64,000 nucleotides of DNA from Treponema sp. Its GTDB lineage: Bacteria; Spirochaetota; Spirochaetia; Treponematales; Breznakiellaceae. How positions within the stretch are numbered: position 1 is the stretch's first letter; each line of letters begins with the position of its first letter. Where the stretch lies: positions 47,631 to 111,630 of the forward strand of contig WRLP01000001.1 in NCBI GenBank assembly GCA_009777535.1, in the 5' to 3' direction. The notes beneath the pieces are model-generated. The model was not told where the DNA came from. It saw nothing but the letters and a program-made list of their open reading frames with translations, and did not search any database. Shown here in pieces: positions 32,156 to 56,879 of the stretch. The position numbers were made by a program, and so were the translations under genes.

Positions 32156-32374
32156 TTATGCTACTTGATAAATCACTGGGCGGTATTGTGGACTCGGTAT
32201 ATCTACATTTGCGTTTCTTGCTTCTTCAAGCCACAGTTTTTGTGCGATTAAAACTTGTTGCAATGCCTCATTCGGCGTTGTGCCAAACGCACTACAGTTT
32301 TTCAAGTCGGGAATATCGGCGATATATCCTTCATCATCATCGCTATAGAATATATTAATATGATAGTCTTTCAT
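32156..32374 (-). CDS. hicB: HicB-family antitoxin (short UPF0150 form)
   Basis: 72 aa (YHINIFYSDDDEGYIADIPDLKNCSAFGTTPNEAL). Its start overlaps the hicA stop (ATGA). Confidence 0.8.
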   Translation of the reverse strand: MKDYHINIFYSDDDEGYIADIPDLKNCSAFGTTPNEALQQVLIAQKLWLEEARNANVDIPSPQYRPVIYQVA

Positions 32375-32745: not shown

Positions 32746-32991
32746 CGCCAGCGTTCCACTGCTTTGGTAATTGCAAAAATATATGCCAGAAAAGGTAAAA
32801 ATTATAAATTAAAAGGTAATTCTTGTCCGCAATCATTGTTTGTTTTCATCATTTGTAGCCTTCGAACCTCGGTTTTTCTCTTTAATCTTTCATCTTTTAC
32901 CTATTCGTTATTACCTTTTCCCTCTGACAGGCCCCCTATTGCCTGTTATAGGCATATATTTTTGCAGTCGCCATAGTCGTGGATAAGCCCC
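32746..32991 (+). other. Conserved structured element, copy B (candidate leader RNA or repeat element upstream of the giant operon)
   Basis: It carries the same conserved 5' and 3' blocks as 4539-4706. A perfect 15-bp helix joins 32773-32787 and 32951-32965, with compensatory changes relative to copy A. It ends 60 nt before the ATG at 33051. Confidence 0.4.
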
Positions 32992-33050
32992 ACTAATGCA
33001 TATCTCATCTGCGCGCCATATATATTCATATAACTTTTTGGAGGTTGTGC

Positions 33051-34040
33051 ATGAGGTTTAAGAAAAAATGTTGGGTTTTTGCTGCGGCGGTGTTATTAAT
33101 TATCGCCTGTAAAAGTGAAAACGATTCTTCGCATTCAACGGCGGCTGTAAATACCGGGGAATGGGCTCAGTCAACGGCTGTCTCTTTTGCGCCGCAGGAT
33201 AATTCGGAGCAGCTTCGTTCGCTGGACGAACTCGCCGAGCTGGAAAGATCCGGCTTCTGGTATCAGGGACTGGCTTTGGCTGAATCCGGTCTGCGGGAAA
33301 GTATCGGGGACTATGCAGGGGCGGTCGCCGCCGCTTACAAGGAACTTGCATGGGCCTATGGTCTTGGAATTATTCAAAAGGAAGATTTGGAACAGGGGCT
33401 TTTGAATGTGCTGGAGCAAAAAAAGGAAGATGCCGTGATATTGACTGCCGGCGCAATTCTTTCTTTTGCCAGGGGGCAGTGGGCCGATGCTTTGGCGGGG
33501 TTTGGCAGTATTTTTGAAGATATCGAAGAACCGGATGGATTTGGCCGCTGGATGCTCCTGGTCTGCTCCCTGGAAAGCAATGGAGACGACAGGCGAACTG
33601 CGGCGGCGTACCGGTCTATCAGGGCACGTTATGCGCAGTTTCCGGAGTACTGGTATCGTGGAGCAAGGGCTTTTTCCGGTCCTTTTGCCGCAGATTATGC
33701 CGAGCGTTGTATTGGTATTGCGCCTTCAGGGCCGTTTGCCGGTGAGTGCCGTGCGATACTTGCCGCTTCCACCGGGCTTAAAGCCGAAGACGGGCTGTCT
33801 CTTAAGACCAAGGCTGAGATTGAGGAGATCATATCCAGCTCACTAAGAGAGGGCCAGCCGGAAATTCTTGGTTCACTGCTTCCCCTGATTTCCCTTCCCG
33901 ACAACCCGTACACCGTTTATGCAGTGGGAGCCCTGCGTGCGCTGTCTGCCGCGCCGGTATACAGGGAGTTTTTCGGTTCGCAGGCTGAAGTTTCCGGGGG
34001 GCGCCTGGCGGAACGGCTGGCCTATATAAGCAGGGGCTGA
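33051..34040 (+). CDS. Lipoprotein, alpha-helical (TPR-like), unknown function; first gene of the giant operon
   Basis: It has lipobox LIIAC. A GGAGG RBS lies 6 nt before the ATG at 33051. Confidence 0.7.
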   Translation: MRFKKKCWVFAAAVLLIIACKSENDSSHSTAAVNTGEWAQSTAVSFAPQDNSEQLRSLDELAELERSGFWYQGLALAESGLRESIGDYAGAVAAAYKELAWAYGLGIIQKEDLEQGLLNVLEQKKEDAVILTAGAILSFARGQWADALAGFGSIFEDIEEPDGFGRWMLLVCSLESNGDDRRTAAAYRSIRARYAQFPEYWYRGARAFSGPFAADYAERCIGIAPSGPFAGECRAILAASTGLKAEDGLSLKTKAEIEEIISSSLREGQPEILGSLLPLISLPDNPYTVYAVGALRALSAAPVYREFFGSQAEVSGGRLAERLAYISRG

Positions 34041-34041
34041 T

Positions 34042-34698
34042 ATGAAAACAAAAAAAGAAAATTGGCGTATAACAGCACTCTTTGCAATTTCTTTCGCCGG
34101 CGTTGTGCTTTCAATTTCCTGCGCTTACAAGGCTGACAGGGAAACCATACACCTGTATATCCGCGCTTCGGAGTTTTATACCGCCGGTAATTTTGCAGAA
34201 ACCTGTAATGTCCTTGATGGAATAGAAAAATTTCCTCCGGCTCTTGTATTGAAGGGCAAGGCCGAATATTTTTCCGGCAGGCTCGATGATGCGGAAAAAT
34301 CTTTCAGGCTGGCGGTTAAAAAACGGCCTTCGGCCTTCGAGGCAAGGCTGTATCTTGCGAGAGTTATCCGTGAAAAAGGAGACCTTGCCGCAGCGATGAA
34401 AATTACCGAGTCTCTGTTAGCTGACTATCCGCAGGATATCAGAACATTGTATCTTGCCGCGGAACTCGCAGACGAAATGGGAAACGGCGCCGAAGCGCTG
34501 CTCCTGATGGACAGAGCCGCAGAATTTTCTGCGGACTGTGCGATGATTCTGCTGGGAAGGGCCAGAATGCGGTGGGTGTTGGGCAGGGGCGCCGATGCTC
34601 TGGAGGATCTTAGCCGTGCAAGGGCAATGCTTCCATGGAACACTCCGTTGGCTAATTCGATCATAAATCTTGAAACACGTATCAGGGAGGCACTGTAA
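34042..34698 (+). CDS. TPR-repeat lipoprotein
   Basis: It has lipobox SISC and TPR-like helices (AEYFSGRLDDAEKSFRLAVKKRP...). It starts 1 nt after the upstream stop. Confidence 0.7.
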   Translation: MKTKKENWRITALFAISFAGVVLSISCAYKADRETIHLYIRASEFYTAGNFAETCNVLDGIEKFPPALVLKGKAEYFSGRLDDAEKSFRLAVKKRPSAFEARLYLARVIREKGDLAAAMKITESLLADYPQDIRTLYLAAELADEMGNGAEALLLMDRAAEFSADCAMILLGRARMRWVLGRGADALEDLSRARAMLPWNTPLANSIINLETRIREAL

Positions 34699-35264
34699 TG
34701 AAAAACTTCATTATCAAAATTATATTTTTTTCTTTTTTTGCAATGCTGCTGCTTTCTTGTGAGGGGCTGCCAATTAATTATTCGCGAAGCCAATCATGGC
34801 TTCTTCCCAAAGCCGGCAGCGAAGAAGCGCAGGGCAAAACCTGGACAACCCTTTGTATTTTAAATGTGAGTGTAGACAGAACCGGAGGCTGGGATTCGGT
34901 GGAAAAGGAAACCGCCGGTCTTGCGCCGTTTTACTTTTGGAAAAGGGGCTGCCGTGTAGTCAGCGCCGGTGAAGCGCCTGTTTATGCGGCGGAGATTCAG
35001 GTAAGGGAAAGGGAATTCGGTCTTGGGTGGCGGACGAAGAGATCCCTGGCTGTGGAAGTTCGTATATGGGCTTATGGTGATGCGCCCGGGCCGGACACTG
35101 CACCAGTGGAAAGAAAGGCGCCGCTGGCTGCCGGAAGGGTTACTGCCATGGGGGAAAGGAGTTTTTCTTCATCGGATACAACTGGCCGCCTGCTTTCCAG
35201 GGCAATCAGCAAAGCGGCAAGAAAATTGGCTGTGTACGAAAGGAGCCTCTTAAATGCGAACTAA
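34698..35264 (+). CDS. Lipoprotein, unknown function
   Basis: It has lipobox LLSC. Its ATG overlaps the upstream TAA. Confidence 0.65.
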   Translation: MKNFIIKIIFFSFFAMLLLSCEGLPINYSRSQSWLLPKAGSEEAQGKTWTTLCILNVSVDRTGGWDSVEKETAGLAPFYFWKRGCRVVSAGEAPVYAAEIQVREREFGLGWRTKRSLAVEVRIWAYGDAPGPDTAPVERKAPLAAGRVTAMGERSFSSSDTTGRLLSRAISKAARKLAVYERSLLNAN

Positions 35265-36642
35265 AGTATTTTTATTCTTGCTGATAATTCTTTTTTCCGT
35301 AGCCTTGTACGGAGTCGAAACGCCTTACTCCCTTACTTTTACCGGGGCTGCCGAGCTTGCCCTGGCTTCATCTCCTGATCTGCGGCATGCCCATGCCTCC
35401 CAAAAACTGAAGGAAAGGGCATGGACAATGGGGCTGCGTGCATATTTCCCCCGGATAAGCCTGGACGTATCAGAAAACGATCGTTTGCAGCAAATTGGCG
35501 CTGACTCTTTTATTAAAAATTACGGAATTAGCGTTGACCAGCTTCTTTGGGACGGCGGCAGAACTTCAATGTCGCGTAACCTTGAACGGTTTGAACTTGG
35601 GCTTGCTTCTTCCGCCCTGCAAAGAATGGCTTCGGAAATTACCGAAAGCGCCCTTGCCGCCTATCGAAGCGTGCTTTCTTCCAGGGCCATTTTGGTTATA
35701 AGGGAAGAGGCTCTTGTTGTCCTGGGTGAACAGCGGCGGATTCTGAGCGAAGAAGTTGATTTGGGGCTTGCCCTGCCTGTGGACCTTGCAAGGGCGGATA
35801 TCAGCCTTTCTGAAGCAAAAATTGATCTTGTTTCCCTGCGCCTGGACCTGGAGGAAATGGAAAAACAGTTTGCACAGCTTCTTGGTCTGGAATTTCTGCC
35901 CGTTCTGGAAGAAAAAGTCGATATCAATCACCCTGTTGTTTTTCCGATGGCTGAAGCTGCCGGCGCTTTGGCAAGAGAACGGAATCCTGATTTAGTTCAG
36001 GCCAGATTTTCTATTGTTAAAAAACAGGCCGAGTTAAAATATATTTCTCACTCATGGCTCCCCAATATCAGGCTTACCGGCGGTTTTGGACTAACAGGCC
36101 AGCAGTATCCGCTAACACGTTATAACTGGTCGGTCGGAATCAATGTCGATTTTTCCGGCCCGTGGTTTCAGAACCGCGCCGGCGCCCAGGCGGGCTGGGA
36201 GCCTCCTTACGACAGAACCGCTATGGTTCAGAACAGCTTCAGTCCCCTGCCCGATCCTGCCGCAGGCCTCAATAAACATCAGGCCTTGCTGGCCCTGGTT
36301 CTTGAAAGGGAAAAATACAATGCCGCTTTTGAGCAGATCGGGCGCCTGACCGTAAGGACTGTGGAAAAGTGTTCTCTTGCCGATCAGAAACGGCTCCTGG
36401 CGCTTGAAGCTGTTTCTCTTGCCGCCGAGCGCTGCCGTATTGATGAATTGAGGCTTGGTCTGGGGCAGATAACCCGGTTAAATCTTATGGAAAGCTTCAT
36501 TGAATATATGCAAAAAGAGATTGCCGTTGTTGAAGCCGCTGTTTATCTGCTTGAAACAACAAGGGAGCTGGAACGTATCCTGGATTTCAGGCCCGGCGAG
36601 TTGGCGGCATTTGCCGCAGTCTATCCGGAGGAAAATTTATGA
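35254..36642 (+). CDS. TolC-family outer membrane efflux protein
   Basis: 462 aa with a signal peptide. It has the two-repeat OEP pattern (LTFTGAAELALASSPDL...; second half ...ARERNPDLVQARF). Confidence 0.8.
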   Translation: MRTKVFLFLLIILFSVALYGVETPYSLTFTGAAELALASSPDLRHAHASQKLKERAWTMGLRAYFPRISLDVSENDRLQQIGADSFIKNYGISVDQLLWDGGRTSMSRNLERFELGLASSALQRMASEITESALAAYRSVLSSRAILVIREEALVVLGEQRRILSEEVDLGLALPVDLARADISLSEAKIDLVSLRLDLEEMEKQFAQLLGLEFLPVLEEKVDINHPVVFPMAEAAGALARERNPDLVQARFSIVKKQAELKYISHSWLPNIRLTGGFGLTGQQYPLTRYNWSVGINVDFSGPWFQNRAGAQAGWEPPYDRTAMVQNSFSPLPDPAAGLNKHQALLALVLEREKYNAAFEQIGRLTVRTVEKCSLADQKRLLALEAVSLAAERCRIDELRLGLGQITRLNLMESFIEYMQKEIAVVEAAVYLLETTRELERILDFRPGELAAFAAVYPEENL

Positions 36643-38000
36643 CGCGTAATTTTTTTATATGGGTATTTGTATTGCCGGCGCTTGTCTTTTCCGCCTGTGC
36701 GGAAAAGGGACACAGCGAAATTGAAGCCAGGAAGGTAAGGGGGGCGGCTGCTGTTATCCGGGAATTGCCGGACGAAGCGGAAGGTTTTGGCACTCTTTCA
36801 TTTCTGGCCAAGGTTGATATTACTTCTTCGCAAGAAGGGGTTATCAGTAAATTGTATTTCCGTGAAGGTGATTATGTCCGGTCCGGGGCACAGGTGCTTT
36901 TGATTGAGAATCCGCAGATTAAACTGGCGGTGGAAAGGGCGGAAAACAATTATTCCCAGGCCCAGGCTGCCTGCGATTTGGCGCGTTCAAGGCTTTTAGA
37001 AGGAAAGTTCATGGCCGAAGCTCAGTTACTCGCAATAGAAAAATCCGAAGCTGAACTGCTTCTTATTAAGAGAAAGTGGGAAGAAGATAAACGCAAGTTT
37101 TTGAATCAGGAGACGCTTTACAATGCCGGAGGGATTAACACCGAAGCAATTCTTGTCAGCCGCTTTAACCTGGATATGGAGTGGGAACAAATTCTGATAA
37201 TGGAAAAGGAGCTGTGTATCCGCATGATTGGCTGCCGCGACCAGGACTTGTTGAGCGCGGGAATTCCCGTTCCGTTAGACGAAAATGAGCGCCGCAGTGC
37301 GCTTGTCTCGCTGATGACACTGAGTCTTACTGCGGAACTAAATGCGTCCATCGCCCGGTTTGAAGCAGCAGAGAAAGAACTTTCTTCCGTCAGAATTGCA
37401 CTGGAAGACTTAAATGTAAGAGCTCCGGCTTCGGGCATTGTGGGAGCGCGCTATTTGGAAGAGGGCGAACGAGTCAAACCCGGGGATAAAATTTTCAGTC
37501 TTATGGACACGGCTTCCCTTTATGCGTTTTTTCCGGTACGCGAAAAAGACGCAATCAGAATAGAAAAGGGAATGGCGGCTTTCGTAAAAATCGACGGAAC
37601 GGGCGAAGTAAGGGAAGGCGTTGTGGACCTGGTTTATCCGCAGGCGGATACCCAAAGTTTAAGTTTTCTTGTGCGGGTGCTGCTCAATGATTCCGGTAAT
37701 GGAGGCGGCACTTCCGCCGGTAACAGGCTAAAGCCGGGAATGTTCGCGCGCAGTTCTGTAACACTTGGCCCGCCGCGCCCGGCGGTTTTTATTCACGAAT
37801 CTGCGGTTTTTAACAAAAAAAACGATGAAGGCAGTGTTTTTGTTGTTAATGGCAGTGTTGCCGGGCAGCGGGCAGTAAAACTGGGGCCTGTTACCGGCGA
37901 AGAGAGAGAAATTATTTCCGGCCTTAATGCCGGTGAAATTGTTATTTTACGGCCGGAATCTGATCTGCGGGAGGGTGCTTATGTGGCGCTGGCTGAATAA
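36639..38000 (+). CDS. Efflux RND periplasmic adaptor (MFP/HlyD family) lipoprotein
   Basis: It has lipobox FSAC, a lipoyl-like motif (GDYVRSGAQVLLIEN), a coiled-coil hairpin and a beta-barrel region. Its start overlaps the upstream stop (ATGA). Confidence 0.8.
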   Translation: MTRNFFIWVFVLPALVFSACAEKGHSEIEARKVRGAAAVIRELPDEAEGFGTLSFLAKVDITSSQEGVISKLYFREGDYVRSGAQVLLIENPQIKLAVERAENNYSQAQAACDLARSRLLEGKFMAEAQLLAIEKSEAELLLIKRKWEEDKRKFLNQETLYNAGGINTEAILVSRFNLDMEWEQILIMEKELCIRMIGCRDQDLLSAGIPVPLDENERRSALVSLMTLSLTAELNASIARFEAAEKELSSVRIALEDLNVRAPASGIVGARYLEEGERVKPGDKIFSLMDTASLYAFFPVREKDAIRIEKGMAAFVKIDGTGEVREGVVDLVYPQADTQSLSFLVRVLLNDSGNGGGTSAGNRLKPGMFARSSVTLGPPRPAVFIHESAVFNKKNDEGSVFVVNGSVAGQRAVKLGPVTGEEREIISGLNAGEIVILRPESDLREGAYVALAE

Positions 38001-39420
38001 TGTGTCTCTTGTGCTGTTATGCGTCATAGCGGTATCCTGCGGATTTGCGGATTTACGCCCCATAGAAATCCGGACTGATCCCTGTGATTACGAGTCTCTG
38101 CTTCCGGACGCTTACACCCCTGTGATGCTTTCCTTTAATACCGGAATGAGAAAGCATGACACCGAAGGGATTATGCAAATCAGCTCCGATGCAGGAGTGG
38201 TAAACGGAGATCGTTACTGGAAGGGGAACGATCTTTACTTCGTACCTGTGCAGGGGTGGACTGCCGGTGCCAGATATACACTGAGCCTTTCCGGAATAGT
38301 CCGCTCGACGGACGGGAGGGAGCTGCGGGTAGAGCGCTTTGTCCCGTTTTTCGCAGTCAATAAAAGTCCGCCGCCGCTGCTGGAATGGTTTAGCCCGGGC
38401 GAAGACGCTTCAGTGGGAACAACGGACACAGTTATGGAATTCAGGTTTTCCAGCCCCATGGAAAGGCTCAGTGTCGAGACAGCCCTGACTGTCGACGGAA
38501 TGGGAAACAAAACATTCGAGTGGCTGTTAGACGATACACATCTGCGTGTTATTCCGGAAAAGAACCTTATCGCATGGACTACGTACCGCTGGACTCTTAA
38601 AGAAAGCGCCAAAAGCAGGGACGGAGTTCCGCTGCCCGGGGCAATTTCTTCCCGGTTTGTAACAAATCTGGATCAGGTGATGCCGCAGGTAACCAGAGCG
38701 TTTCCGGTACTGAATTCCATGGGGCGCTGGCTTCCCACCGGAGCAGAATTATCAACAGGGCTGGGTTCCGGACAGGCCATTGCCGTTGAGTTTAACAAGG
38801 TAATGGACGAGAATGTTCTGCGTTCAATGCGTTTCGAGCCTTCCATTACCGGAAGAACGGAATTGTTATCTGAAAAAACAATTATTTATATATTTAACCG
38901 CAATCCCGAACCAGAAACGGCATATACCCTTGTTGTTTCAGGAGATACAAAAGACAGCGAGGGCCTGAAAATCGGAGAAGACTACAGAATCAGTTTTATT
39001 CCCGATATTCCATTTTTGAAAATTCTATCGTTTAACGCTGACAATGCTCCCTCACTTATGAATTTTGGTCCAAGCGGCGATATGGGCGCCCTGGAAGTTC
39101 CGGTCGATCCGGCATTCGGAGAGTTTTCGTTTACCATTCGTTTTTCGGCACCCTTCGGTAATGAAGAAAAACAGAATGCCGCGTTAAAGATTTTTCTTTT
39201 TCCCTTTTTCCCGAAAAATCTGCCTCCCATTGCCCTGCGTTCGGCCAACTGGATTTCCAGCGATCGTTTGCGCATGACATGGGAGGGCCTTAGGGCGGGA
39301 AGCAGCGGCGAACCCAATTATTACAAGCTGCTTATTCCCGGCGGGAAGGGAGGAATAGAAAACGGACAGGGAATGTATTTAAGGGAAGATCAATTTCTTT
39401 TTTTGGAGGCAATAAAATGA
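37981..39420 (+). CDS. Ig-like (SbsA/Big_5-type) repeat lipoprotein
   Basis: It has lipobox AVSC. There are repeated ~100-aa modules ending in motifs such as YTLSLSGIVRSTDGREL, YRWTLKESAKSRDGVPL and YTLVVSGDTKDSEGLKI. Confidence 0.65.
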   Translation: MWRWLNNVSLVLLCVIAVSCGFADLRPIEIRTDPCDYESLLPDAYTPVMLSFNTGMRKHDTEGIMQISSDAGVVNGDRYWKGNDLYFVPVQGWTAGARYTLSLSGIVRSTDGRELRVERFVPFFAVNKSPPPLLEWFSPGEDASVGTTDTVMEFRFSSPMERLSVETALTVDGMGNKTFEWLLDDTHLRVIPEKNLIAWTTYRWTLKESAKSRDGVPLPGAISSRFVTNLDQVMPQVTRAFPVLNSMGRWLPTGAELSTGLGSGQAIAVEFNKVMDENVLRSMRFEPSITGRTELLSEKTIIYIFNRNPEPETAYTLVVSGDTKDSEGLKIGEDYRISFIPDIPFLKILSFNADNAPSLMNFGPSGDMGALEVPVDPAFGEFSFTIRFSAPFGNEEKQNAALKIFLFPFFPKNLPPIALRSANWISSDRLRMTWEGLRAGSSGEPNYYKLLIPGGKGGIENGQGMYLREDQFLFLEAIK

Positions 39421-40991: not shown

Positions 40992-40998
40992 GAAAATT

Positions 40999-47180: not shown

Positions 47181-50100
47181 AAAATTTCTATTTCGATAAA
47201 ATTACAGCCGCCGTTTTGACGGTTATTTTGGCAGTTGGTATGCTTCCGGTAAATGGGTTTACCCAGGCATTTCCGGCTCCTTCGCCGTCTTCAAAAACTT
47301 CAGATTCCCTTTATGATGTCCGGGGTTTTGACAGAACGGTCTTTGATTATCACTTTAGCAGAGCCGACAGGGAACTGAGTCCGGATCGCTGGCTTGCGGA
47401 AGCGAAGCAGGGTATTAATATGGCAATTTGCGCCTGGGAATTATTTGCTTCGTCTTTATATGACAATCCTTTTCTTCTCCAGGGGGCAAGGGCAAAAATA
47501 GAAAAGTGGAGCGGCGAAGAACTCGAAGAGCGTTTTTCTGAATGGCTCGCCGGCCGTTTTTTCGGCGAAGCTGTCGAAAATGCCATGACCGGAATATCAG
47601 GACTGTTAGGCGATACTCAAAAACAGTACACATGGCATTTGGATACGGCTGGAAATATTATTCTGGAGGATAAGACAGGAGATCCCCTTGTAATACGGCC
47701 ACACGAGAGTGCGTTTATATTTGATTTGGAAAAATGGAAAAACGATGCGGCGAACCATATTAATTCGGAAAGTGCTTTTTTTAATGACGCGTTAACCGCT
47801 CTTTATCCGGAACTGCTGGCTTATATGCCGGCTGAACTGCGCCAAAGCATGAATTCGGTGATTCTTGGAACCGGCTCAACCTTAAAAAATTTTGTTAAGA
47901 GGGAATTTGAAAACATTGCCGCAAGGGAAGAGCGCCTGTTTATCAGCCGGCGGACAAGAGATGTATGGAGTCTGCGCAATAAAAGCGATGAGGAGGCGGC
48001 AAGGATCGTTACCGAAAGGCTGATAAGTGAAGCTGAAGAAGTATGTATAAGGGGAATTAATGATTTAAACACAAAAATTGAGGAAGCTTCCGCCGGCACC
48101 GGGGATCTGGCTTTTTTGGGCGAAGAATGGCTGCGAATGTATCAGGAACAGTTTGACAGGGGGCTGCGGGCCTGGGAAGATGCGGAAGAAAGATTTTTTA
48201 TCAGGAGAATCGAGTGGGAGCAGGAGTCGCTCAGACTTTTCTCCGAGGGAGAAGATGTCTGGCTTGCGGCTTATCATCAGTTGGAGGAAGAGCGCAGGAA
48301 GTGGGAATTAAAAGCAAAAGAGTTATTCGAGTCCGGTGAAGCGTTGTTCATGAATATTTCAGAAAATCTGGAGAAGGCGATTACTGCCGCAAGGGCCGAA
48401 TTTGAATATAACATGGCAATGCGGATTGGAAGCGGGGCCGCAAAAGCCAAGGCCCTGGTCGATATGTACCTGACCAGCGGCTCTGCGGCTTTGACTATCA
48501 GGGATAACATTCTGTTTTGGCAGAAACAGATTGCGTACGGTGATCCGCCGGATCCATCGGAGGCCCGTTTTTCCCAATGGCTTGCCGGTGAAAGACTGAA
48601 TTTTTGGATAAAGGCAGAAACCAATGAAAAAAGGTGGATTGGATATGACGATTATGTTGAACAGCTGGAAGCATTAAATTATATTATAATAACAACAAGG
48701 GATCCGGCGGAAAAAGCTTTCGCTACAGTAAACTACAATAATTTGTATAACAGATTTATTGCTGCCCAAATATACTTAATTCAAATTCAGGACATTATTG
48801 AAGATATCGTTGCCGGAAAAACAGTAACAGATGCGGAATTTGAATTTGCAGAGGGTAATGGTTCATTGGGCCTTTTTGATCGCGCCCGTTTTAATAATAT
48901 TTCGGAAATAACCAAATTATATGAGTTATATCTTTCGTACATGGCCAGAGCAACAGAAACAAGAGAAATAATTATTGAAGATTTCAGTGAGTTAATGGGA
49001 ACCGGAGCGCTGAAAGATATTATTTCGCCTAATGCATCAAGCGAAGATTTTTGTCTCGATGAGTACCAGCTGGAGCTAATCAGGGCAAAAGCGCTCGTGC
49101 TGTACTGGGAACGAAAGACATACATTGCAGAAGCGGTATCCGCCTATGCGAAGGATCTGAGCGCCGGAAGAGTTACAGAGGCGGAAGGAATACAGGCCTG
49201 GGAAAACGCCAAAACCGCCTACAACGAGTCACTGGAGAGGTATGAGACAGAGTTAAACCTGTTAGCCGAAGCCGGCGAAGACATGAAAAACATGCAAAAA
49301 AAGCTGGACAGTTTAAACGCTGAGTTAAAGTATGCTGAAGAAAAGTTAAATAAAATGAATTCCGATTATTCCGCTATTATTGCCGCTTCCATTACCGATC
49401 GTGAGGATCAGCTGCGGCTGGAATTAGATGCAAAGTATAATTTTCTTGTTACGGAATACAGACTGCTGTCTCCAAATGGCGGCGCTTCAGTCTATAGTGC
49501 AGCCCTGAATTATGGCATGAATATGGAGAGAGCCTGGCGGATTGAAAATGCCCAAATTGCCCTTTTTGATCTTGTTAATGGAAAGAACGAAGGTGTCGGC
49601 GTTGATGCATTATCTTTATATGAACTTAAAGAAAGAGTTCTTGCCGGACTTGAATCAGAGGTTAGCTTAAGAATTCGTCTTGCCGGTATTAATTTATTTT
49701 CTGATACATTTGACGGCTATCTAAGGTCCCCGAATTCTTCTTACAGTAGTGCGGATTGGTATTCTGGTGTGAAAGGTATTGCCCACACTTATGAATTGGC
49801 AAGGTCCCTGTATGGTGAAAAATTAGGGGAGCAGCTTATTGCCGATTATAAAAACAGTTATTCTATCCTGATAGAAACCCGGCTTGCCCTTGAGATTGAT
49901 GCCCTTGATTTTTTTCTTTATGGAGATTCAGAGCCGGAAAGCATTTCGGAGCTTTTGTCTGAAAGCTGTCTTGTTGATGATATTACCGCCGCAGAGCTTC
50001 TTGAAGTGTTAATAGCTTTTCGAGACAGGCTCAACCACGGAGAAGGGTTTTATTCTTATAACGACGATGAAAATGAAATTATTTACCGGTTCATCTCAGG

Positions 50101-53100
50101 AGAATCTTCCTTTACCGGAACGGAAAATATTGTTGCTGAATTAATAAATGAATTTAATTTCTCCCTTGGCTTGCTGGAATTGTACAGTGAATACGCTTTG
50201 TTTGGTTCATTTACAGCGTGGGAACTGTGGCAGAACACGCTTGTGTCGCTGGAAAGGTTTTTTTCCGAATATGGCCTGGCACTGAATGGAGAATACCTGC
50301 CTGACGCCGATAGAATTTGCGCAAAAATATTCGGGCAATCCGGGAATTTTCTCAATAATGCAGCGGAATTCCTGCGGAATTTTGAACAGTGTTTTCTTTT
50401 TGTACCGGAATGGCTGGAATATGAACTGGATATCTGGAAAACATATTTAATCGATTATATTGCAGCTTATGCGGTGTATTTGGGAAGGCAGCCTTTGGAA
50501 CATTCATCATATTTTGAATCTGAATTGGATAATATGGAGGGCCGGTACAATTTATTTTACGAGAACATCAATTCTATGCGATATATCGATGATTTGTCGA
50601 TGGATAAAATAGAATACGATTATTTAACACTTAAAAACGAAAATATATTGCTCGCTTATAAATATCAGATTGCCGTGGTCTTGGAAAAAATTTCCAAAGA
50701 ATCGGATAACGCAGGTTATGAGAAACATTGGCGCCGGTTCTTATCTGGTTTTTATATTAACAGTATTGATTCCGCGGCTTCTGGTGTTTCTTCATGGAAT
50801 GAGGGTGTAATGCTTGATGCCCTGGAAAAGGCAGTATTTTCTACCGGCCGAATGAATATCGCCTTGGCCATGTACTCTCAAATAAATAATGACATAGTAA
50901 CGGCCAATTCAGAAATACTTTACGGTTTGTATCATAACGAAAATTTAAAGATAGAGCACGGTTTTTCGAGCCTGGATTTTCAGAGAACTGAACTTGCCCG
51001 TCTTGGCAGGGCTTATGATTATTCAAAAATACCATCTATCGATTTAACGGTTGAGGCGGAAAAACATTATGAGGCGCTTGGAATCCAGGAAAATATTTTT
51101 TACGCGCTATGGGATGATTATCTGGCAGAGGCTGAAGAATTTGTTAAAATTGGCAGCCTGTATGACAATCAATACGGCAGACTAAAGTATGCTTACAATA
51201 ATACGGAAAGGCTGCGCTTTGAATATGAAAAACAGGATGCAATTCGAAGATGGGCAAGCACAGCATATCTAGATGCGGGTAATATCGATCTTCTGAACAG
51301 TAAAGATAGGCTTGCCAGAGCGCAAATGGTATTAACTGTTTTGTCAGACATATATGACAATGAAGAACGGCGTCAATATGATAATCCTGAATATCAGGCG
51401 CTGTACCTTAATTACGAACAGTGGTTTAACAATAAGCTGGTAATTGCAAAAACCTATGACGCTCTTCAGTCGTTGATAGGGGAAGAAGCAATAAAAAATA
51501 ATGATATTTACTCACAGTATAATTCAGTGCTTGCAACTCTCGGGCAATGGACATTTCAACACGACTATGACGGGTATAATTCTTCGGCGGACCAATCGCA
51601 GTGGTCAGTTAAAGATATTATTACCGTAAAAAACGGTCAATTGGCATTTTCCAGAGACGAGATGACTCTAACAGGAGTAAATGATTCCAAATCAAAACTT
51701 TTAAATGATTATTTTACATCATCTTATGTTGTCTCCGGCGAAAAGCACATTGTAAGTCAATTTGAAGAATCTGTCAGAAGTTTAAGCCAGAGAATGACCG
51801 GCTATTTCATGAATGCGGAAAAATTTAATCAATGGGGGCTTGCAAGGGATTATCTGATATCTTCCATGATTGCCGCAAACGGAAATTTAAAGTTTTTGTC
51901 AGGTTATTATACAGGAGCCGGAGAACTGGCCGATGGCGGCAGCTTAGGTAGACTGTCTTTCAAATATTCACCGGTTGATAGAACCGAAACAGTCAGGTCT
52001 GCCGCTCATAACAACAGTTCATTTTATAACTCCCTAAGAAACCCGCAAGCCATGCTGAAAAATGCCTGGGAAGGTTTAAGCGAACAGGAAAAAGCCGATC
52101 TTGAATTTTATATTATTCTGACATTGTCCGGCAGGTTCAACAATTATGCAGGCGGGTTTTCGATGATACATACGCTTGATGTTTATCAGAAGGGATACAA
52201 TTTTGTAAGGGAATATTATAAAAAAGCAGATAAAATATGTAATGATCCATTGAAGCTCGGCGGTCTTGGGATATGGAAAGAAATGAGGGATATAAACAAG
52301 ACAACAATGAATCGAATAAATACTGTTCTTAATGAAACAAAGAAAATTGTAGAAACATGGAAACTTGGATTAGCTGAAAATTTAAGGCAAATATCATTGT
52401 ATGCTTCTGAATATACCAGGTCCTGCGCAGAACTGGACGAAATAGAAAAGACACAACCGGATGGACAAAGGATTGTATGGCAGGATATCGAAGATTCTGT
52501 TTCCTGTTTAAAAACGATTTCTGATTATGAAATTACAATTCTGGAAAGTTGCTGGAAAAAAATGCTTGTGGAAACCGGCAGGGCATATACCAGTGTCCCG
52601 GCTGCAATTGCCGATCTGCTTGGCTGGGCAGGGAATACCGAGGTATTAAGCAGGCAGGCTCTGGAATATTTTTGGATTGCTGATGAACAATCACGCAAGA
52701 AGGCGGAAATTGATTTTCGCCTGGCGCAGGAAGCTTATTTTTCCGATGAAATAAGCATAGATACTCTAGAGGCTGCCGCAGAAAATGCTTACGGAAAAAA
52801 CTCCGCAGCATGGAAAAATCATCTTGAAAATTTAGGAAACACAATGATAAGGGATCTGGGCAGTTATTTAAATTCCCACTCAAGTTATTATACGGAGTTT
52901 CAGGCTCTTGGGGAAGATTTGGTTGCCGTAGTTGCAAGGACGCTCCACAGTCGTTATGCGGCGGAACTTGCCGGCAGAGATAACGAATGGAATCTGCAGC
53001 GCATGGACATAGCTGAAAAATATATTGAGTGGCAGATGCTTGCGAAACGGCTTGTGGAAAATGGCAGAAATGACTGGGATAACGGCGTTCAGAAAATAAC

Positions 53101-56100
53101 AGAGGCTCATAGGCAATGGAATGAAAATTTCGTAAACGAATACAACCGGGTAAGCGCTGAGTGGACGGAAACTTATCTGGCCGGGCTGGAAGATAAAAAG
53201 AAATGGCTGGAAATGGTTGGCAATGCGGCAGATAACGCGGCATCCTCCGCCTTTCTGTCTCTTGTCGGCGCTGAGGCGGAACGAATGGCGAGATCAATAG
53301 AAACCAGGGAACCGTTTGGTCTTCGTGATATTGAAGTTGATGCGGATGATCTTCTGGCGGAACTGCTGAACAGTTCCGGAATCCGCAATATGACTAGTGC
53401 ATTTGCTTCAATTAACGCAATTTCCGAAACCGGATCCATCGCGGTCAGGAGGGGTATTGGCGGCTTATCGTCATGGGACGCATCTCTTGCCAGGGCGGCT
53501 GCCGGAGATTTGGCCCGAAAAACCAATTCACAGCTGGCTGCCCAGGAATCCGCAAAACTTGCTTTAGTTACCCGTAATATAGCCGAAGAGGCTGTTAAAA
53601 ACCTTGTCTCCAGCGTGGATTCCGCAAACAATGATTTTCGTGAAAGCATGGACGATACTTTTATCTTTAAGGGGCTTTGGAGAAGGAGCGGAAATAATTA
53701 TGTGAAAGATATAATAATGGGTTCTACCCTTTTTGAACCTGTAATCACAGAAAGAAAAACCATTGCAGGATATTCTGATTACCGGATGGATCCGGTAGAA
53801 CTCAAGGTAAACCTTGATGAAAAATACCTGGCAAGCCTGGACACTCTGGCTCTCAGGAGCATAATGGAAAGTGTCTATCAGGAACTGGAATCCATTGCAA
53901 AAGAAATATTCGGAAATAATTCTGGCCCCGAAAAAATAATCAAACAGGGAATAATTTACAAACGTTCCGGCAATACCAGGGAATCAATGTATGAGGAAGT
54001 ATTGATTGATCTAGAGGAGCGCGATCTTTTTCCGGGAAAATTCGGCGCTCATATCGGATATAGACCGGCAGTAAAGCCCGGTGATCTGAATGGAAATAAC
54101 AAAAATACAATGTTCCATGATCAGGGCAGCGGAGAGCTGGGGCGCCTAATGACCCAGTTCATATATTGGGCAGTAATCGACGGGAAGGGAAGCGCCGAAA
54201 TTTACACGGCCACATGGGAAAAACGCATGTGGGACGACAGCGGCAGCTCATTTGAGGCGCCCAGCCTTCGTACAGCGCTGCAAATAGCCGGTACGGTTGC
54301 GGCCGCAGTTGTTTCGATAGTGGCGGCGCCGTTCACCGCGGGGGCAAGTACTCTGGGCCTGGTTGGATTAATGGCTCTTAATGTCGGCATTACTTCCACC
54401 AGCGAACTGGTTTTCAATGCTCTTGATGTGGGTTATGGCCATAAGACATTTGGTGAAGCGGGTTTTAGTTTTGGAAAGACAACTTTGATAAATACAGTCA
54501 GCAGCGTTGGTTCGGGGGTTTTTGGCGGTGTAGGAAACGCCGGCTTTATTGCCGGCCAGGGGCTTACAAGCGCGGCTGTTGGCACGGCAGCAGGTTCTGC
54601 TGCGGCTACAGTGGCTGTTCAGACTACAATGGCCGGTGTGCAGACCTTTACCACCGGATTGCTAACCAATGCCATAGGCGGAATTAATTACAGCCGTGAA
54701 GGAGGCTGGAGCTACTCGGTGCAGAGCGACAGCGGAAAAGGTCTGCTGATAAACACACTGTCTTCCATGGGGGGAGCCTTTACTACCGGGGCATTCCAGG
54801 CTATTAACACCGGAACCGTTGGAGAAAAAGTTGTGGGCTTTTCCGGATTAAACAGGGAAGACATTGCAAGGCTGAACGGCCTGGCCGGTTCCCTTGCCGG
54901 CGAAGGAATTAATTTTGCCTTTGGAGGTGATTTTACATTAAATTTACTGAATATAGGCTTATTTACAGACAGCAAGTATAACAGCGGGCTGCTGGAATTG
55001 CATATTGGCCGTGACGGTTCCCCGACAATGAACCTTGGAACCGGCGGTGCGAATATCAGCCCTGAAAATATATTAGCGGCCTTTAGGGGCGCGCAGGTCT
55101 GGAATATGAACAACCAAATTGGCAGGTATGGGAGGGATAATGATTTTGACGCATTGATTGCATTAAGGGCGCAATACGGATTTGGCGACTCAACGCAGGT
55201 GGAACAACTCCGCAACATTCTGAACAAAATAGACGAACTATGGACTGAAAGCGGTCAGGGGTATGATGCAAAAACAGAAATGATTGACGGTGTGCGTGTT
55301 GTAAGGCTCGGCAATTATCAGGCTGGAATGAGTGTGGAAGAACAAATGCGCCTTGCCGCGATTCTTGGGCATGAGGCGTACAGAGATGGCATAATTTCAC
55401 CGGATGATTTCGCAGAACTCAAGGATGCATCAATCGCAAGAATACTAATGGGAGACCGGATAAATCAGGACTATCAGTGGTTTTATGCCTATAATGTTGA
55501 TTTTGGTTTCGAGAGTTTCCTGTATGGTATGGCGGAATTATCAGGGTATTTTGAACTGCTTGATAATTATCTGCAGTACACCTACAAAAATGAGGAAGAC
55601 TTCTTTTGGCAATGGGCAAGTACGGGAGGCAATTTCCAGTCTATGGATGAACTAAAAAGCATACCGCTCCTGAACTCAATGTCTGTGGCTAAAGTAGATG
55701 AAATTAACGACGAAAGGTTAGATACTGCATTTGATAAATATAAAGAAGACCTGGCAAAAGAAGAAGACTATACCGGTGATATTGCGGATTTTGTATCAGA
55801 AAAAGGGACAGATGATGTATTAAAAGAAGCTTTTAAAAATGATGCGGGGCTTTTGAGTAAATATGAATATGATCCTATACAAATAGAGTCGATTTATTCA
55901 GATGGCTGCATGTTCATGTCGACAAAATACGGGCTGGAGGCAATTACCGGGAAACAGTTTGATACACTCTGGTTCAATGAGTATATAAAAAATAATAATC
56001 TATACGATGGTGAATCCGATCTTTCAAAATATTTAATGGCCGAAATTATGAACCGCCTTGCAGGAAACCAATATAATGTAACTCTTGTCCAAACGGGTCT

Positions 56101-56446
56101 TCCGGATGCGGCCAGGTTATTTGAATACGGACAGGCAGGTGATATGTATCTTGCCCATCTGCGGATAAAAGAAAACGGGACTGGCGGGGGTTATCATTCT
56201 GTGATGGTTTCCGGCATCGAATACACTTACGATATTATGGGAAATGTTACTGGTATAAGCGCTGTCAATGTAGCGAATCCCTGGGGCAAGGGCAGCTTTA
56301 CCGGAAAAACCAGTTACACAATGGATCAAATTGCCCGCTGGGATATTTTCAGGGTAACCCAGCAAGGACCGTTAACCACGGTAATAAGAGTTCCAAGTTT
56401 TAGGGACAAATTACAGTCTGGGTATTATTATACATTACCTTTTTAG
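47168..56446 (+). CDS. Giant secreted protein (3,092 aa): signal peptide, ~2,300-aa helical region, Gly-rich hydrophobic module, C-terminal papain-like Cys/His domain
   Basis: A single uninterrupted ORF. The alternative start at 47177 forms ATGA with the RND stop. N-terminal signal peptide: KITAAVLTVILAVGMLPVNGFTQA. Confidence 0.85.
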   Translation: MFNMKNFYFDKITAAVLTVILAVGMLPVNGFTQAFPAPSPSSKTSDSLYDVRGFDRTVFDYHFSRADRELSPDRWLAEAKQGINMAICAWELFASSLYDNPFLLQGARAKIEKWSGEELEERFSEWLAGRFFGEAVENAMTGISGLLGDTQKQYTWHLDTAGNIILEDKTGDPLVIRPHESAFIFDLEKWKNDAANHINSESAFFNDALTALYPELLAYMPAELRQSMNSVILGTGSTLKNFVKREFENIAAREERLFISRRTRDVWSLRNKSDEEAARIVTERLISEAEEVCIRGINDLNTKIEEASAGTGDLAFLGEEWLRMYQEQFDRGLRAWEDAEERFFIRRIEWEQESLRLFSEGEDVWLAAYHQLEEERRKWELKAKELFESGEALFMNISENLEKAITAARAEFEYNMAMRIGSGAAKAKALVDMYLTSGSAALTIRDNILFWQKQIAYGDPPDPSEARFSQWLAGERLNFWIKAETNEKRWIGYDDYVEQLEALNYIIITTRDPAEKAFATVNYNNLYNRFIAAQIYLIQIQDIIEDIVAGKTVTDAEFEFAEGNGSLGLFDRARFNNISEITKLYELYLSYMARATETREIIIEDFSELMGTGALKDIISPNASSEDFCLDEYQLELIRAKALVLYWERKTYIAEAVSAYAKDLSAGRVTEAEGIQAWENAKTAYNESLERYETELNLLAEAGEDMKNMQKKLDSLNAELKYAEEKLNKMNSDYSAIIAASITDREDQLRLELDAKYNFLVTEYRLLSPNGGASVYSAALNYGMNMERAWRIENAQIALFDLVNGKNEGVGVDALSLYELKERVLAGLESEVSLRIRLAGINLFSDTFDGYLRSPNSSYSSADWYSGVKGIAHTYELARSLYGEKLGEQLIADYKNSYSILIETRLALEIDALDFFLYGDSEPESISELLSESCLVDDITAAELLEVLIAFRDRLNHGEGFYSYNDDENEIIYRFISGESSFTGTENIVAELINEFNFSLGLLELYSEYALFGSFTAWELWQNTLVSLERFFSEYGLALNGEYLPDADRICAKIFGQSGNFLNNAAEFLRNFEQCFLFVPEWLEYELDIWKTYLIDYIAAYAVYLGRQPLEHSSYFESELDNMEGRYNLFYENINSMRYIDDLSMDKIEYDYLTLKNENILLAYKYQIAVVLEKISKESDNAGYEKHWRRFLSGFYINSIDSAASGVSSWNEGVMLDALEKAVFSTGRMNIALAMYSQINNDIVTANSEILYGLYHNENLKIEHGFSSLDFQRTELARLGRAYDYSKIPSIDLTVEAEKHYEALGIQENIFYALWDDYLAEAEEFVKIGSLYDNQYGRLKYAYNNTERLRFEYEKQDAIRRWASTAYLDAGNIDLLNSKDRLARAQMVLTVLSDIYDNEERRQYDNPEYQALYLNYEQWFNNKLVIAKTYDALQSLIGEEAIKNNDIYSQYNSVLATLGQWTFQHDYDGYNSSADQSQWSVKDIITVKNGQLAFSRDEMTLTGVNDSKSKLLNDYFTSSYVVSGEKHIVSQFEESVRSLSQRMTGYFMNAEKFNQWGLARDYLISSMIAANGNLKFLSGYYTGAGELADGGSLGRLSFKYSPVDRTETVRSAAHNNSSFYNSLRNPQAMLKNAWEGLSEQEKADLEFYIILTLSGRFNNYAGGFSMIHTLDVYQKGYNFVREYYKKADKICNDPLKLGGLGIWKEMRDINKTTMNRINTVLNETKKIVETWKLGLAENLRQISLYASEYTRSCAELDEIEKTQPDGQRIVWQDIEDSVSCLKTISDYEITILESCWKKMLVETGRAYTSVPAAIADLLGWAGNTEVLSRQALEYFWIADEQSRKKAEIDFRLAQEAYFSDEISIDTLEAAAENAYGKNSAAWKNHLENLGNTMIRDLGSYLNSHSSYYTEFQALGEDLVAVVARTLHSRYAAELAGRDNEWNLQRMDIAEKYIEWQMLAKRLVENGRNDWDNGVQKITEAHRQWNENFVNEYNRVSAEWTETYLAGLEDKKKWLEMVGNAADNAASSAFLSLVGAEAERMARSIETREPFGLRDIEVDADDLLAELLNSSGIRNMTSAFASINAISETGSIAVRRGIGGLSSWDASLARAAAGDLARKTNSQLAAQESAKLALVTRNIAEEAVKNLVSSVDSANNDFRESMDDTFIFKGLWRRSGNNYVKDIIMGSTLFEPVITERKTIAGYSDYRMDPVELKVNLDEKYLASLDTLALRSIMESVYQELESIAKEIFGNNSGPEKIIKQGIIYKRSGNTRESMYEEVLIDLEERDLFPGKFGAHIGYRPAVKPGDLNGNNKNTMFHDQGSGELGRLMTQFIYWAVIDGKGSAEIYTATWEKRMWDDSGSSFEAPSLRTALQIAGTVAAAVVSIVAAPFTAGASTLGLVGLMALNVGITSTSELVFNALDVGYGHKTFGEAGFSFGKTTLINTVSSVGSGVFGGVGNAGFIAGQGLTSAAVGTAAGSAAATVAVQTTMAGVQTFTTGLLTNAIGGINYSREGGWSYSVQSDSGKGLLINTLSSMGGAFTTGAFQAINTGTVGEKVVGFSGLNREDIARLNGLAGSLAGEGINFAFGGDFTLNLLNIGLFTDSKYNSGLLELHIGRDGSPTMNLGTGGANISPENILAAFRGAQVWNMNNQIGRYGRDNDFDALIALRAQYGFGDSTQVEQLRNILNKIDELWTESGQGYDAKTEMIDGVRVVRLGNYQAGMSVEEQMRLAAILGHEAYRDGIISPDDFAELKDASIARILMGDRINQDYQWFYAYNVDFGFESFLYGMAELSGYFELLDNYLQYTYKNEEDFFWQWASTGGNFQSMDELKSIPLLNSMSVAKVDEINDERLDTAFDKYKEDLAKEEDYTGDIADFVSEKGTDDVLKEAFKNDAGLLSKYEYDPIQIESIYSDGCMFMSTKYGLEAITGKQFDTLWFNEYIKNNNLYDGESDLSKYLMAEIMNRLAGNQYNVTLVQTGLPDAARLFEYGQAGDMYLAHLRIKENGTGGGYHSVMVSGIEYTYDIMGNVTGISAVNVANPWGKGSFTGKTSYTMDQIARWDIFRVTQQGPLTTVIRVPSFRDKLQSGYYYTLPF
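54270..55060 (+). other. Gly/Ala/Thr-rich hydrophobic (glycine-zipper-like, possibly membrane-inserting) module of the giant protein
   Basis: IAGTVAAAVVSIVAAPFTAGASTLGLVGLMALNVGI...VGSGVFGGVGNAGFIAGQGLTSAAVGTAAGSAAATVAV... Confidence 0.5.
55860..56443 (+). other. C-terminal papain-fold (C39-like / NlpC-P60-like) cysteine peptidase-type domain of the giant protein
   Basis: The candidate nucleophile is Cys in SDGCMFMS (codon 55907-55909). The candidate His is in GGGYHSVMVSG (56195-56197), followed by VANPWG (Asn/Asp position). Confidence 0.5.
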
Positions 56447-56456
56447 GAGGAAAGTT

Positions 56457-56879
56457 ATGAAAAAATTAATATTTATGGTATTCGGTGTTTTTGTTCTATT
56501 TGGACATCTGGAGGCTGAAAGAATAAGGGAGAGGGGCGTCATTATCGACTATGAAATATATGATAACGGCAAACATATTTTTCGAACTAGCATTTGTGAT
56601 GATGATGGCAGCGGCTCTATTAGCTATTATTATTCATTGTATATGCTTAAATCCGCAAGCCCTGATTTTATCAATATTTTTTATGAAAGATACGGCAGTC
56701 CCGGCGAAGATTTTATCCATAATTTTTCTTTCCAGCGTATTTCAACATTTAGTTATGATAAATTTTTGGATGAAGTCAGAGCATTCCTGATAAAAGTTGG
56801 AGAAAGCGAGGAAAAAACCGAGGTTATTGTGTCTCTGCTCTCAGAGTACCGTAGTATTTTATTGTACAATATGGACTAA
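56457..56879 (+). CDS. Small secreted protein (140 aa), candidate cognate partner/immunity protein of the giant protein C-terminal domain
   Basis: An AGGAGG RBS is present and the start is 10 nt after the giant-gene stop. It has a signal peptide (MKKLIFMVFGVFVLFGHLEA) and is visibly AT-rich. Confidence 0.6.
   Translation: MKKLIFMVFGVFVLFGHLEAERIRERGVIIDYEIYDNGKHIFRTSICDDDGSGSISYYYSLYMLKSASPDFINIFYERYGSPGEDFIHNFSFQRISTFSYDKFLDEVRAFLIKVGESEEKTEVIVSLLSEYRSILLYNMD

Follow-up and report, generated by a model that had tools for sequence, protein, structure and literature searches.

An operon of termite-gut Treponematales joins an RND-type pump to a giant Sec-signal protein with a variable tail and may handle a bacterial toxin in a way not yet described

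Results

An operon of eleven tightly packed genes

We analysed a stretch of 64,000 nucleotides of Treponema sp. DNA (GenBank assembly GCA_009777535.1, contig WRLP01000001.1, positions 47,631 to 111,630 of the forward strand), referred to as the window. Positions 33045-56879 of the window hold eleven open reading frames (ORFs), designated g1 to g11, all on the plus strand, and the ten junctions between them range from a 20-nt overlap to a 10-nt gap. The operon belongs to a conserved module, in which a set of resistance-nodulation-division (RND) permeases, membrane fusion protein (MFP) and outer-membrane factor (OMF) is combined with four lipoproteins and a giant protein. The giant carries a Sec signal peptide and a hydrolase tail that recombines, and its exported partners match the tail. 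Judged by gene context, the module appears to handle a bacterial toxin in a manner not described before. The genes and the domains of the giant are as follows.

33045-34040, plus strand: g1, lipoprotein of 329 or 331 aa, first gene of the operon, lipobox 'LIIAC'
34042-34698, plus strand: g2, 218-aa tetratricopeptide repeat (TPR) lipoprotein, matches to TPR_16, TPR_14 and TPR_19, lipobox 'SISC'
34698-35264, plus strand: g3, 188-aa lipoprotein, accessory (non-core), lipobox 'LLSC'
35254-36642, plus strand: g4, TolC-like OMF with signal peptide, PF02321 (OEP) 102 bits in two stretches
36639-38000, plus strand: g5, RND-type periplasmic adaptor (MFP), TIGR01730 (RND_mfp) 160.8 bits against a cut-off of 94.9
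37981-39420, plus strand: g6 (Big5a), 479-aa Ig-like (Big_5) lipoprotein, PF13205 58.6 bits
39417-40991, plus strand: g7 (Big5b), 524-aa Ig-like (Big_5) lipoprotein, PF13205 56.3 bits, lipobox 'FSSC'
40999-44082, plus strand: g8 (RND1), AcrB-type RND permease with a non-canonical proton relay, ACR_tran (PF00873) 468 bits over residues 5-1007
44079-47180, plus strand: g9 (RND2), divergent second RND permease, ACR_tran 273 bits, stop overlapping the start of the giant gene
47177-56446, plus strand: g10, the giant, putative polymorphic effector of 3,089 aa with Sec signal peptide, conserved body and variable tail
54266-54397, plus strand: hydrophobic, Gly/Ala-rich, hairpin-like segment of the giant (aa 2367-2410), 19-residue Kyte-Doolittle windows 1.67-1.95
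54812-55777, plus strand: conserved pre-tail domain of the giant (aa ~2549-2870), pLDDT mostly 80-94, 'LGHEAYRDG' motif
55787-56446, plus strand: C-terminal cassette of the giant (aa ~2874-3092), predicted papain-like peptidase domain, Cys2914/His3010/Asn3037
56457-56879, plus strand: g11, 140-aa ORF with a signal-peptide-like hydrophobic N-terminus, 10 nt after the giant

The original prediction had called eleven tightly packed ORFs on the plus strand, and all of these ORFs and their junctions were recovered. The g1/g2 junction (34040/34042) is a 1-nt gap, the ATG of g3 at 34698 has one base in common with the preceding stop, and the starts of g4 (35254) and g6 (37981) overlap the genes before them by 11 and 20 nt. 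ATGA overlaps were found at 36639, 39417, 44079 and 47177, and the remaining junctions are 40991/40999 (g7/g8) and 56446/56457 (g10/g11). The g6 start was refined from 37927 in the open-reading-frame listing to 37981, from which 12 orthologues align with an invariant lipobox Cys20. For g10 the start is 47177, in the ATGA overlap, and not 47168, as M4 is invariant in 20 homologues and the 100% identical database protein FWG99_00470 has 3,089 aa. The start of g1 is either TTG 33045 or ATG 33051, and about 420 nt of non-coding DNA with a terminator-like hairpin at 32940-32954 lie 5' of it. The cluster had also been expected to be free of internal terminators that would split it. Consensus scans of the operon gave no excess of strong ones, which agrees with this, but one hairpin departs from it. 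This G+C-rich hairpin (37770-37795, plus strand; 6 GC pairs, then a T-run) falls within the MFP gene, some 190 nt upstream of where Big5a starts, and it could be a chance structure or an internal attenuator that sets stoichiometry.

Profile searches of the operon proteins bore out the predicted TPR lipoprotein, TolC-like channel, adaptor, two Ig-like lipoproteins, two RND paralogues and giant. No Pfam or NCBIfam match was obtained for g1, g3, g11 or the giant. A search of the Protein Data Bank (PDB) gave no match for g1 and nothing significant for g3 or Big5a. The g4 protein scored 84 bits with TIGR01844, under the family cut-off, and g5 also matched HlyD_D23 and HlyD_3. A lipobox-like Cys is present in g1, g2, g3, g5, g6 and g7. 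The MFP itself is probably a lipoprotein, and g7 resembles a paralogous partner of g6.

The pump genes and the giant gene are linked in both directions

Gene order was compared in two sets of loci, which are denoted by L numbers. For the giant-anchored set, a profile of the giant was scanned over one genome per GTDB species, which gave 45 loci, 41 of them with informative upstream DNA. For the Big5a-anchored set, metagenomes were scanned with a Big5a profile, and 41 of the 80 loci obtained extend past RND2. By tblastn of the window proteins, the order MFP-Big5a-Big5b-RND1-RND2-giant was found in 34 of the 41 informative giant-anchored loci, down to a giant identity of about 30%. In the opposite direction, all 41 Big5a-anchored loci reaching past RND2 run on into a giant gene. 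Wherever the upstream DNA in this set was sufficient, g1, g2, OMF and MFP were all present. The conserved order is lipoprotein, TPR lipoprotein, OMF, MFP, two Big_5 lipoproteins, two RND permeases and giant; g6 to g10 are contiguous in 73 loci. Two separate look-ups by protein identity, with independent gene calls and Pfam labels, showed the same neighbourhood. Since more than 70 independent loci share this order, the arrangement is far from anything that chance would produce. These results demonstrate that the core module comprises ten genes and that the link between pump and giant is bidirectional. They strongly favour the dedicated link that had been proposed, and the alternative offered with it, an ordinary pump that merely shares an operon, became unlikely on the strength of this conservation.

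Every long Big5a-anchored locus has a g1 orthologue ahead of its TPR gene, g2 is kept in all long loci, and g4, g5 and g7 are conserved across loci. The g3 gene was found in only six of about 45 long Big5a-anchored loci (L058, L063, L064, L065, L072 and L092), and it is therefore regarded as accessory. Of the gene content first described, g3 thus turned out to be accessory and g11 to be without a homologue, while the rest of the set was upheld. Overlap or near-abutment of the RND2 stop and the giant start recurs across loci, and whole operons are duplicated inside single metagenome-assembled genomes (MAGs; L008 with L021, L018 with L019). The divergence of pump and giant, compared by identities relative to the window only, was weakly correlated (Spearman 0.2-0.43) and is not used as an argument.

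The 45 giant loci come almost entirely from termite-gut Treponema or Spirochaetaceae MAGs; among the others are the isolate Treponema sp. TIM-1 and one MAG each of Gracilinema caldarium and of Termitinemataceae. When Big5a was used as a profile to look for the module in other phyla or with other cargo, the 120 best matches listed were all orthologues. We take the system to be a lineage-specific envelope system of termite-gut Treponematales. Complete loci were also seen in contigs of a 'Brevinematales' MAG and of 'Fibrobacteria bacterium GUT31' (L010, L018 and L019), with proteins about 55-70% identical to those of Treponema; it is likely that these contigs belong to Treponema and were binned wrongly.

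The giant has a conserved body without known relatives

More than 200 homologues of the giant, of 2,600-3,260 aa, were found. A HMMER search with giant residues 2250-3092 returned 534 clusters at 50% identity, and the best 150 were all giants or giant fragments. Against Pfam and NCBIfam the giant gave only sub-threshold coiled-coil noise, and a profile of 20 giants found no relative among the PDB sequences. A Leptospira 'longest protein' family, considered as a possible relative, was not borne out.

A hydrophobic N-terminus, the signal peptide, is present in all 20 aligned giants (that of the window and 19 homologues). The hairpin-like segment at aa 2367-2410 is the only other hydrophobic stretch of the giant. 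It is hydrophobic at the same aligned position in 20 of 20 sequences, with Kyte-Doolittle maxima of 1.4-2.2, and AlphaFold2 models it as helices at low confidence. The motif of the pre-tail domain ('G-x-EAYRDG') is nearly invariant apart from its His. Because this His is not conserved, the domain was not called a metallopeptidase. Foldseek with an 843-residue model of the giant found nothing significant, and only weak matches of the pre-tail domain to minigluzincin, CapP and MATCAP.

The tail of the giant is a variable hydrolase cassette

The 120 homologues mapped onto the giant cover it in full as far as residue ~2750, beyond which coverage drops to roughly one half. By their last 220 residues the giants sort into no fewer than seven unrelated classes, a number that the genome loci raise to ten or more, and the C-terminal cassette is about 300 aa long. 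Pfam identified M23 (several kinds), M15_4 and CHAP domains in sibling tails, and a YkuD-like 'HSSTYQVSDGC' motif was read by eye in the tail of L046. The window tail has no Pfam match, and its profile gave only chance caspase matches in the PDB. Cys2914, His3010 and Asn3037 are invariant in 40 and in 18 tails of the window's class. In the AlphaFold2 model of this tail (pLDDT 79), the Cys immediately precedes helix 41-54 and the His is part of a strand. Foldseek matched the model to staphopain (probability 0.99, target TM-score 0.51), to CdiA-CT 8ssk (0.93) and to models of a phage peptidase, a lysozyme and an endolysin (1.00, 0.97 and 0.72). The features of a papain-like enzyme were found in the model, and the window tail is a predicted papain-like peptidase whose substrate may be peptidoglycan or protein.

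Bodies that are 80-90% identical over 1,200 residues can carry unrelated tails, as in the giants P0014 and P0033. Tails of one class also diverge far faster than the bodies, with bodies at 89% and tails at 40% identity in one example. The loci of P0014 and P0033 (L131 and L132) share 88.8% DNA identity over 12.8 kb, including both RND genes and the giant, and the similarity stops abruptly at giant codon ~2604. These comparisons indicate that recombination swaps the tail cassette between different types of peptidase and cell-wall hydrolase. The giants have the conserved N-terminal region and the recombining, unrelated C-terminal domains by which polymorphic toxins are recognised.

Displaced pieces of giants were found at only two places. 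In L012, a tail-like fragment lies at ~21437-21802, 3.4 kb downstream of the giant. A 73-bp remnant of a giant body (aa 2433-2454) lies at 14999-15071 in L131, downstream of the locus.

Exported partner genes vary with the tail class

We examined the first ORF after the giant in 27 loci by a pairwise comparison that was not corrected for phylogeny. The ORF class was shared in 20 of 49 pairs with the same tail and in 8 of 302 pairs with different tails (odds ratio 25, Fisher p 2e-13, phylogeny uncorrected). Most of these partner ORFs begin within 100 nt of the giant and carry a lipobox or a signal peptide. Homologues of the partners of other tail classes are stacked downstream in L003, L012, L019, L028 and L031. 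These stacked homologues resemble, by analogy, the orphan-immunity arrays of toxin loci. In L003, consecutive same-strand homologues of such partner lipoproteins occupy 19446-22285.

In the window, g11 takes the position where other loci carry tail-matched lipoproteins. It looks like an insertion acquired along with the tail, because Etf genes directly follow the giant in the TIM-1 clade. It is a weak candidate for a cognate partner; that it acts as an immunity protein is a guess, to which we give a little less than an even chance.

Two further kinds of gene were observed after giants. In L014, L019, L131 and L132, some of them encode lipoproteins with the SH3_3 domain (bacterial SH3, wall-binding), which is unusual for an immunity protein. 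The first gene downstream of the giant in L012 encodes a BspA-type leucine-rich repeat protein.

Both RND paralogues have an atypical proton relay

The permease, adaptor and OMF that define a tripartite RND system, including a 12-transmembrane ACR_tran permease and an RND-type MFP, are encoded together in the operon. The best PDB match of RND1 is MdtB (5e-55). The proton relay was compared with that of E. coli AcrB by alignment, in both paralogues of seven loci. A single Asp remains in TM4, at the position of D407; the D408 equivalent is missing and Asn stands in for K940. The R971 equivalent is variable in RND1 and in RND2 is Pro in six of the seven loci and Ser in L048. Neither paralogue has the D407/D408/K940/R971 relay of an HAE-1 pump. 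Among the NCBIfam subfamilies of RND permeases, the best match was NF033617, with 379.7 and 187.1 bits against a cut-off of 1250. These results suggest that RND1 and RND2 form a distinct RND lineage, for which energy coupling cannot be assumed. The two paralogues presumably form a hetero-oligomer.

An analogy with SecDF had been drawn for these permeases, and it was not supported. SecD and SecF models of NCBIfam matched only the C-terminal transmembrane part, with about 22-32 bits against cut-offs of 148-1249. We rejected SecDF because both proteins match ACR_tran end to end as full-length AcrB-type RNDs, and the SecD/SecF scores reflect similarity of a shared transmembrane domain.

Discussion

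A putative machine for a polymorphic effector

The original prediction had proposed a dedicated RND-powered envelope system that exports, anchors or assembles the giant, with a periplasmic structural protein as the alternative view of the giant. The gene linkage upheld the dedicated part. The step of transport, anchoring or assembly is still what gene context suggests, and orphan giants exist. The view of a structural protein has given way to another one, in which the swappable tail and the co-varying exported partner genes make the giant a probable toxin. We judge the chances to be about even that the giant is a polymorphic effector which, after delivery by Sec, is exported or displayed by a dedicated RND-based machine; the transport step we infer from gene context. 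A bolder version, which we hold tentatively and with somewhat less than even confidence, is a new secretion route in which a heteromeric RND pump, working with its adaptor, a TolC-like duct and dedicated Ig-like and TPR lipoproteins, picks up a 340-kDa Sec-delivered polymorphic toxin in the periplasm or at the inner-membrane surface and exports or displays it for contact-dependent killing of competitors in the termite gut.

In the proposed mechanism, Sec would move the giant into the periplasm. The RND machine, driven by the proton-motive force, would then take it, possibly via the hydrophobic hairpin at the outer face of the inner membrane, and the giant would be exported or surface-displayed through the adaptor and the outer-membrane duct. 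The hairpin could, as a speculation, be a handle that the pump recognises at the outer leaflet of that membrane. The two Ig-like lipoproteins and the two or three helical or TPR lipoproteins may serve as a periplasmic scaffold; the 4-5 extra conserved lipoproteins exceed the needs of an efflux pump. The tail would attack the wall or envelope of neighbouring bacteria, and the partner lipoprotein would shield the producer and its kin in the periplasm.

Comparison with known systems

Every part of the module is of a known kind, and we regard the combination as a polymorphic effector system with an undescribed RND-based companion machine. Polymorphic toxin systems such as CdiA/CdiB, Rhs and MafB (Zhang et al. 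2012, PMC3482391) likewise have a large conserved N-terminal body with a recombining C-terminal cassette. They also have a cognate immunity gene directly downstream and orphan immunity genes, for both of which many giant loci offer candidates. CdiA and MafB have a Sec signal peptide, as the giant does. In contrast to these toxins, the body of the giant lacks FHA, RHS and all other known repeats or trafficking domains and matches nothing in Pfam or the PDB, and its companions are RND, MFP and OMF together with lipoproteins, with no TpsB, type VI secretion system (T6SS), type VII secretion system (T7SS) or PVC gene. Orphan tail cassettes are almost absent from the giant loci, and the partner is missing in some clades. 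None of the known trafficking modes (type V secretion system (T5SS)/TpsB, T6SS, T7SS, PVC, TcdB/TcaC and MuF) is assigned to the giant by a domain or a neighbouring gene, and the list of modes for polymorphic toxins in PMC3482391 contains none that would suit the combination. A search of the literature found no description of the system, in agreement with the earlier statement that this combination is not a described secretion route.

Pumps of the MdtABC-TolC type likewise have an OMF, a lipoprotein MFP and two adjacent full-length AcrB-type permeases. The operon described here differs in its 4-5 added conserved lipoproteins, in its reduced relay (one Asp, and Asn at K940) and in the obligate link of the pump cluster to a secreted protein of 3,000 aa instead of a regulator. 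The nearest precedent for the transport step is MacAB-TolC, in which export by Sec is followed by a tripartite pump that empties through a TolC-type duct. MacAB-TolC expels the Sec-delivered enterotoxin STII and cargoes up to ~10 kDa from the periplasm (PMC8277102). It has a MacB-type ABC motor and a cargo of ~5-10 kDa, whereas an RND pair and a cargo of ~340 kDa are proposed here.

In type I secretion systems (T1SS) of giant RTX adhesins and toxins, the gene of a giant substrate likewise stands beside MFP and OMF genes, and giant T1SS substrates carry a C-terminal signal. We rejected a T1SS, as there is no ABC exporter in the operon or the conserved loci and the giant has an N-terminal Sec signal and no RTX repeats. 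Two-partner secretion (T5bSS) was rejected, as the operon proteins and the giant have no Pfam match to TpsB/Omp85 or a TPS domain, and T6SS and T7SS were rejected for lack of a defining gene in the window or related loci. Periplasm-acting effectors of T6SS and X-T4SS (Tae-like, M23-like or L,D-transpeptidase-like), whose immunity proteins are periplasmic or lipoproteins, likewise combine the same set of wall-degrading domains with exported lipoprotein partners. They differ entirely in the delivery apparatus, since a 3,000-aa Sec substrate carries the effector domain as its tail in the present case. SecDF and eukaryotic Dispatched, which releases lipidated Hedgehog, set the precedent that motors of the RND fold can transport polypeptides or set them free on the outer side of a membrane. 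The proteins described here differ from them in being AcrB-type pumps with 12 transmembrane segments, an MFP and an OMF.

Points against the proposal and rival explanations

Several findings weigh against export or display of the giant by the pump. Handling of the giant by the pump is suggested by gene context only, and a literature search found no report of an RND pump moving a protein. Energisation is uncertain with the atypical proton relay of both RNDs. Seven giants (L006, L024, L039, L043, L045, L046 and L047) lie away from an RND cluster and adjoin housekeeping genes (dnaE, recG, gidA) and transporters. Adjacency to the RND pair is therefore not obligatory, and no second locus was detected in the MAGs concerned. 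No partner gene follows the giant in the TIM-1 clade, where Etf is directly downstream, or in L006, L024 and L131, and the tail subclass of the window groups with L006 and L024. The g11 protein is an ORFan, for which 5.8 billion proteins yielded not one homologue. Downstream of the giants there are almost none of the orphan tail cassettes that cdi and rhs loci often have, the fold matches of the tail have weak E-values (8e-4 to 2e-2), and the terminator-like hairpin at 37770-37795 lies within the MFP gene.

Pump and giant may instead cooperate without the giant being cargo. The RND complex would export a small molecule or lipid, or act as a trans-envelope anchor, and the giant would be a docked periplasmic partner. 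We regard this as rather unlikely. The RND, MFP and OMF proteins have the usual length and domain layout, the only substrates known for RND pumps are small or lipidic (established knowledge; reviewed in PMC8277102), and the hairpin, 2,360 residues past the Sec signal, could be a stop-transfer anchor in the inner membrane. However, the swappable toxin-like tail, the immunity-like arrays and the duplication of the whole operon together with the giant are left unexplained, and the four conserved extra lipoproteins and the non-canonical relay speak against a routine drug pump. A giant directed at the cell itself, as a periplasmic scaffold that remodels or tethers its own peptidoglycan, with lipoproteins that regulate or localise the hydrolase and tails that reflect wall chemistry or phage pressure, would suit the fact that every identified tail family acts on cell walls. 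It would also suit the SH3_3 wall-binding domains of some partner proteins, the several loci without a partner gene and the stable position of the locus by the Etf genes across clades. We nevertheless hold such a role to be distinctly unlikely, because near-identical bodies carry unrelated tails with a sharp recombination breakpoint, tails diverge much faster than bodies (89% against 40% identity), and stacked orphan partners of other tail classes are a signature of conflict systems and not of housekeeping.

The RND machine could also serve self-protection, by clearing mislocalised toxin or toxic wall fragments from the producer's periplasm, in the manner of the immunity transporters in bacteriocin loci; the giant would leave by another route, such as lysis or vesicles. 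Pump and toxin are strictly co-inherited, and loci without a partner lipoprotein (the TIM-1 clade) still keep the pump, both of which would fit. Orphan giants without a pump exist, however, the dedicated lipoprotein partners already fit an immunity role, and an RND pump in such a role has no precedent; self-protection is thus quite improbable. Each pump component matches standard efflux families, as expected if an ordinary multidrug efflux operon stood beside an unrelated large gene by coincidence. This is scarcely credible, and we excluded it because the neighbourhood data contradict it: more than 70 loci, with protein identities of 30-60%, keep the order, the overlap or near-abutment of RND2 and giant recurs, and no Big5a-anchored cluster without a giant was found among the 41 informative loci.

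Should the RND complex indeed handle the giant, a system that exports or displays a protein with RND power would be seen for the first time, polymorphic toxins would gain a new trafficking mode, and the range of cargo credited to RND motors would grow. Such a system would also be a sign of an interbacterial weapon in spirochaetes. To our knowledge, no interbacterial weapon has been characterised in spirochaetes, and the termite hindgut is one of the densest spirochaete communities known. Under more cautious readings too, there is a large unannotated family of more than 500 clusters at 50% identity that has no Pfam, NCBIfam or PDB relative, and a set of new lipoprotein families that includes candidate immunity proteins. 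Cultured carriers are Treponema sp. TIM-1 and, judged by names in the protein search, R6D11 and R8-4-B8.

Neighbouring genes and other observations

Upstream of the operon lie an ABC sugar importer and a hicAB-like pair, and downstream a convergent acyl-CoA dehydrogenase gene and EtfAB. The position beside the Etf genes is stable across clades. No gene for an ABC exporter, TpsB, T6SS or T7SS was found in the window or related loci, in keeping with the absence noted earlier. In L006, an MMPL-type transporter of the RND superfamily is encoded at 4372-7062, 3 kb upstream of the orphan giant. As a partner of this giant it was treated as coincidence, since L024 (with dnaE, yggT and recG there) and the other orphans are without it.

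The stop of g11 (ending at 56879) and that of the convergent acyl-CoA dehydrogenase gene (56880) are immediately adjacent, and any terminator must therefore be inside a coding region. In the middle of the giant gene (48000-54000), G+C is 0.39-0.43 against 0.47-0.50 elsewhere in the operon, and the GC skew is strongly positive. Just upstream of the operon, an overlapping toxin-antitoxin pair of hicB-like (72 aa) and hicA-like (63 aa) genes lies at 32156-32562 on the minus strand, with Pfam E-values of 2.5e-5 and 1.1e-5, slightly under the gathering scores. A 1,059-aa ORF at 25309-28488 on the plus strand has no Pfam match at E<=0.001 and no obvious signal peptide. It is directly followed by the ABC sugar-importer operon at 28992-32104 (substrate-binding protein and two permeases). 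The sole Rfam match in the window is one tRNA gene at 4201-4271 on the plus strand.

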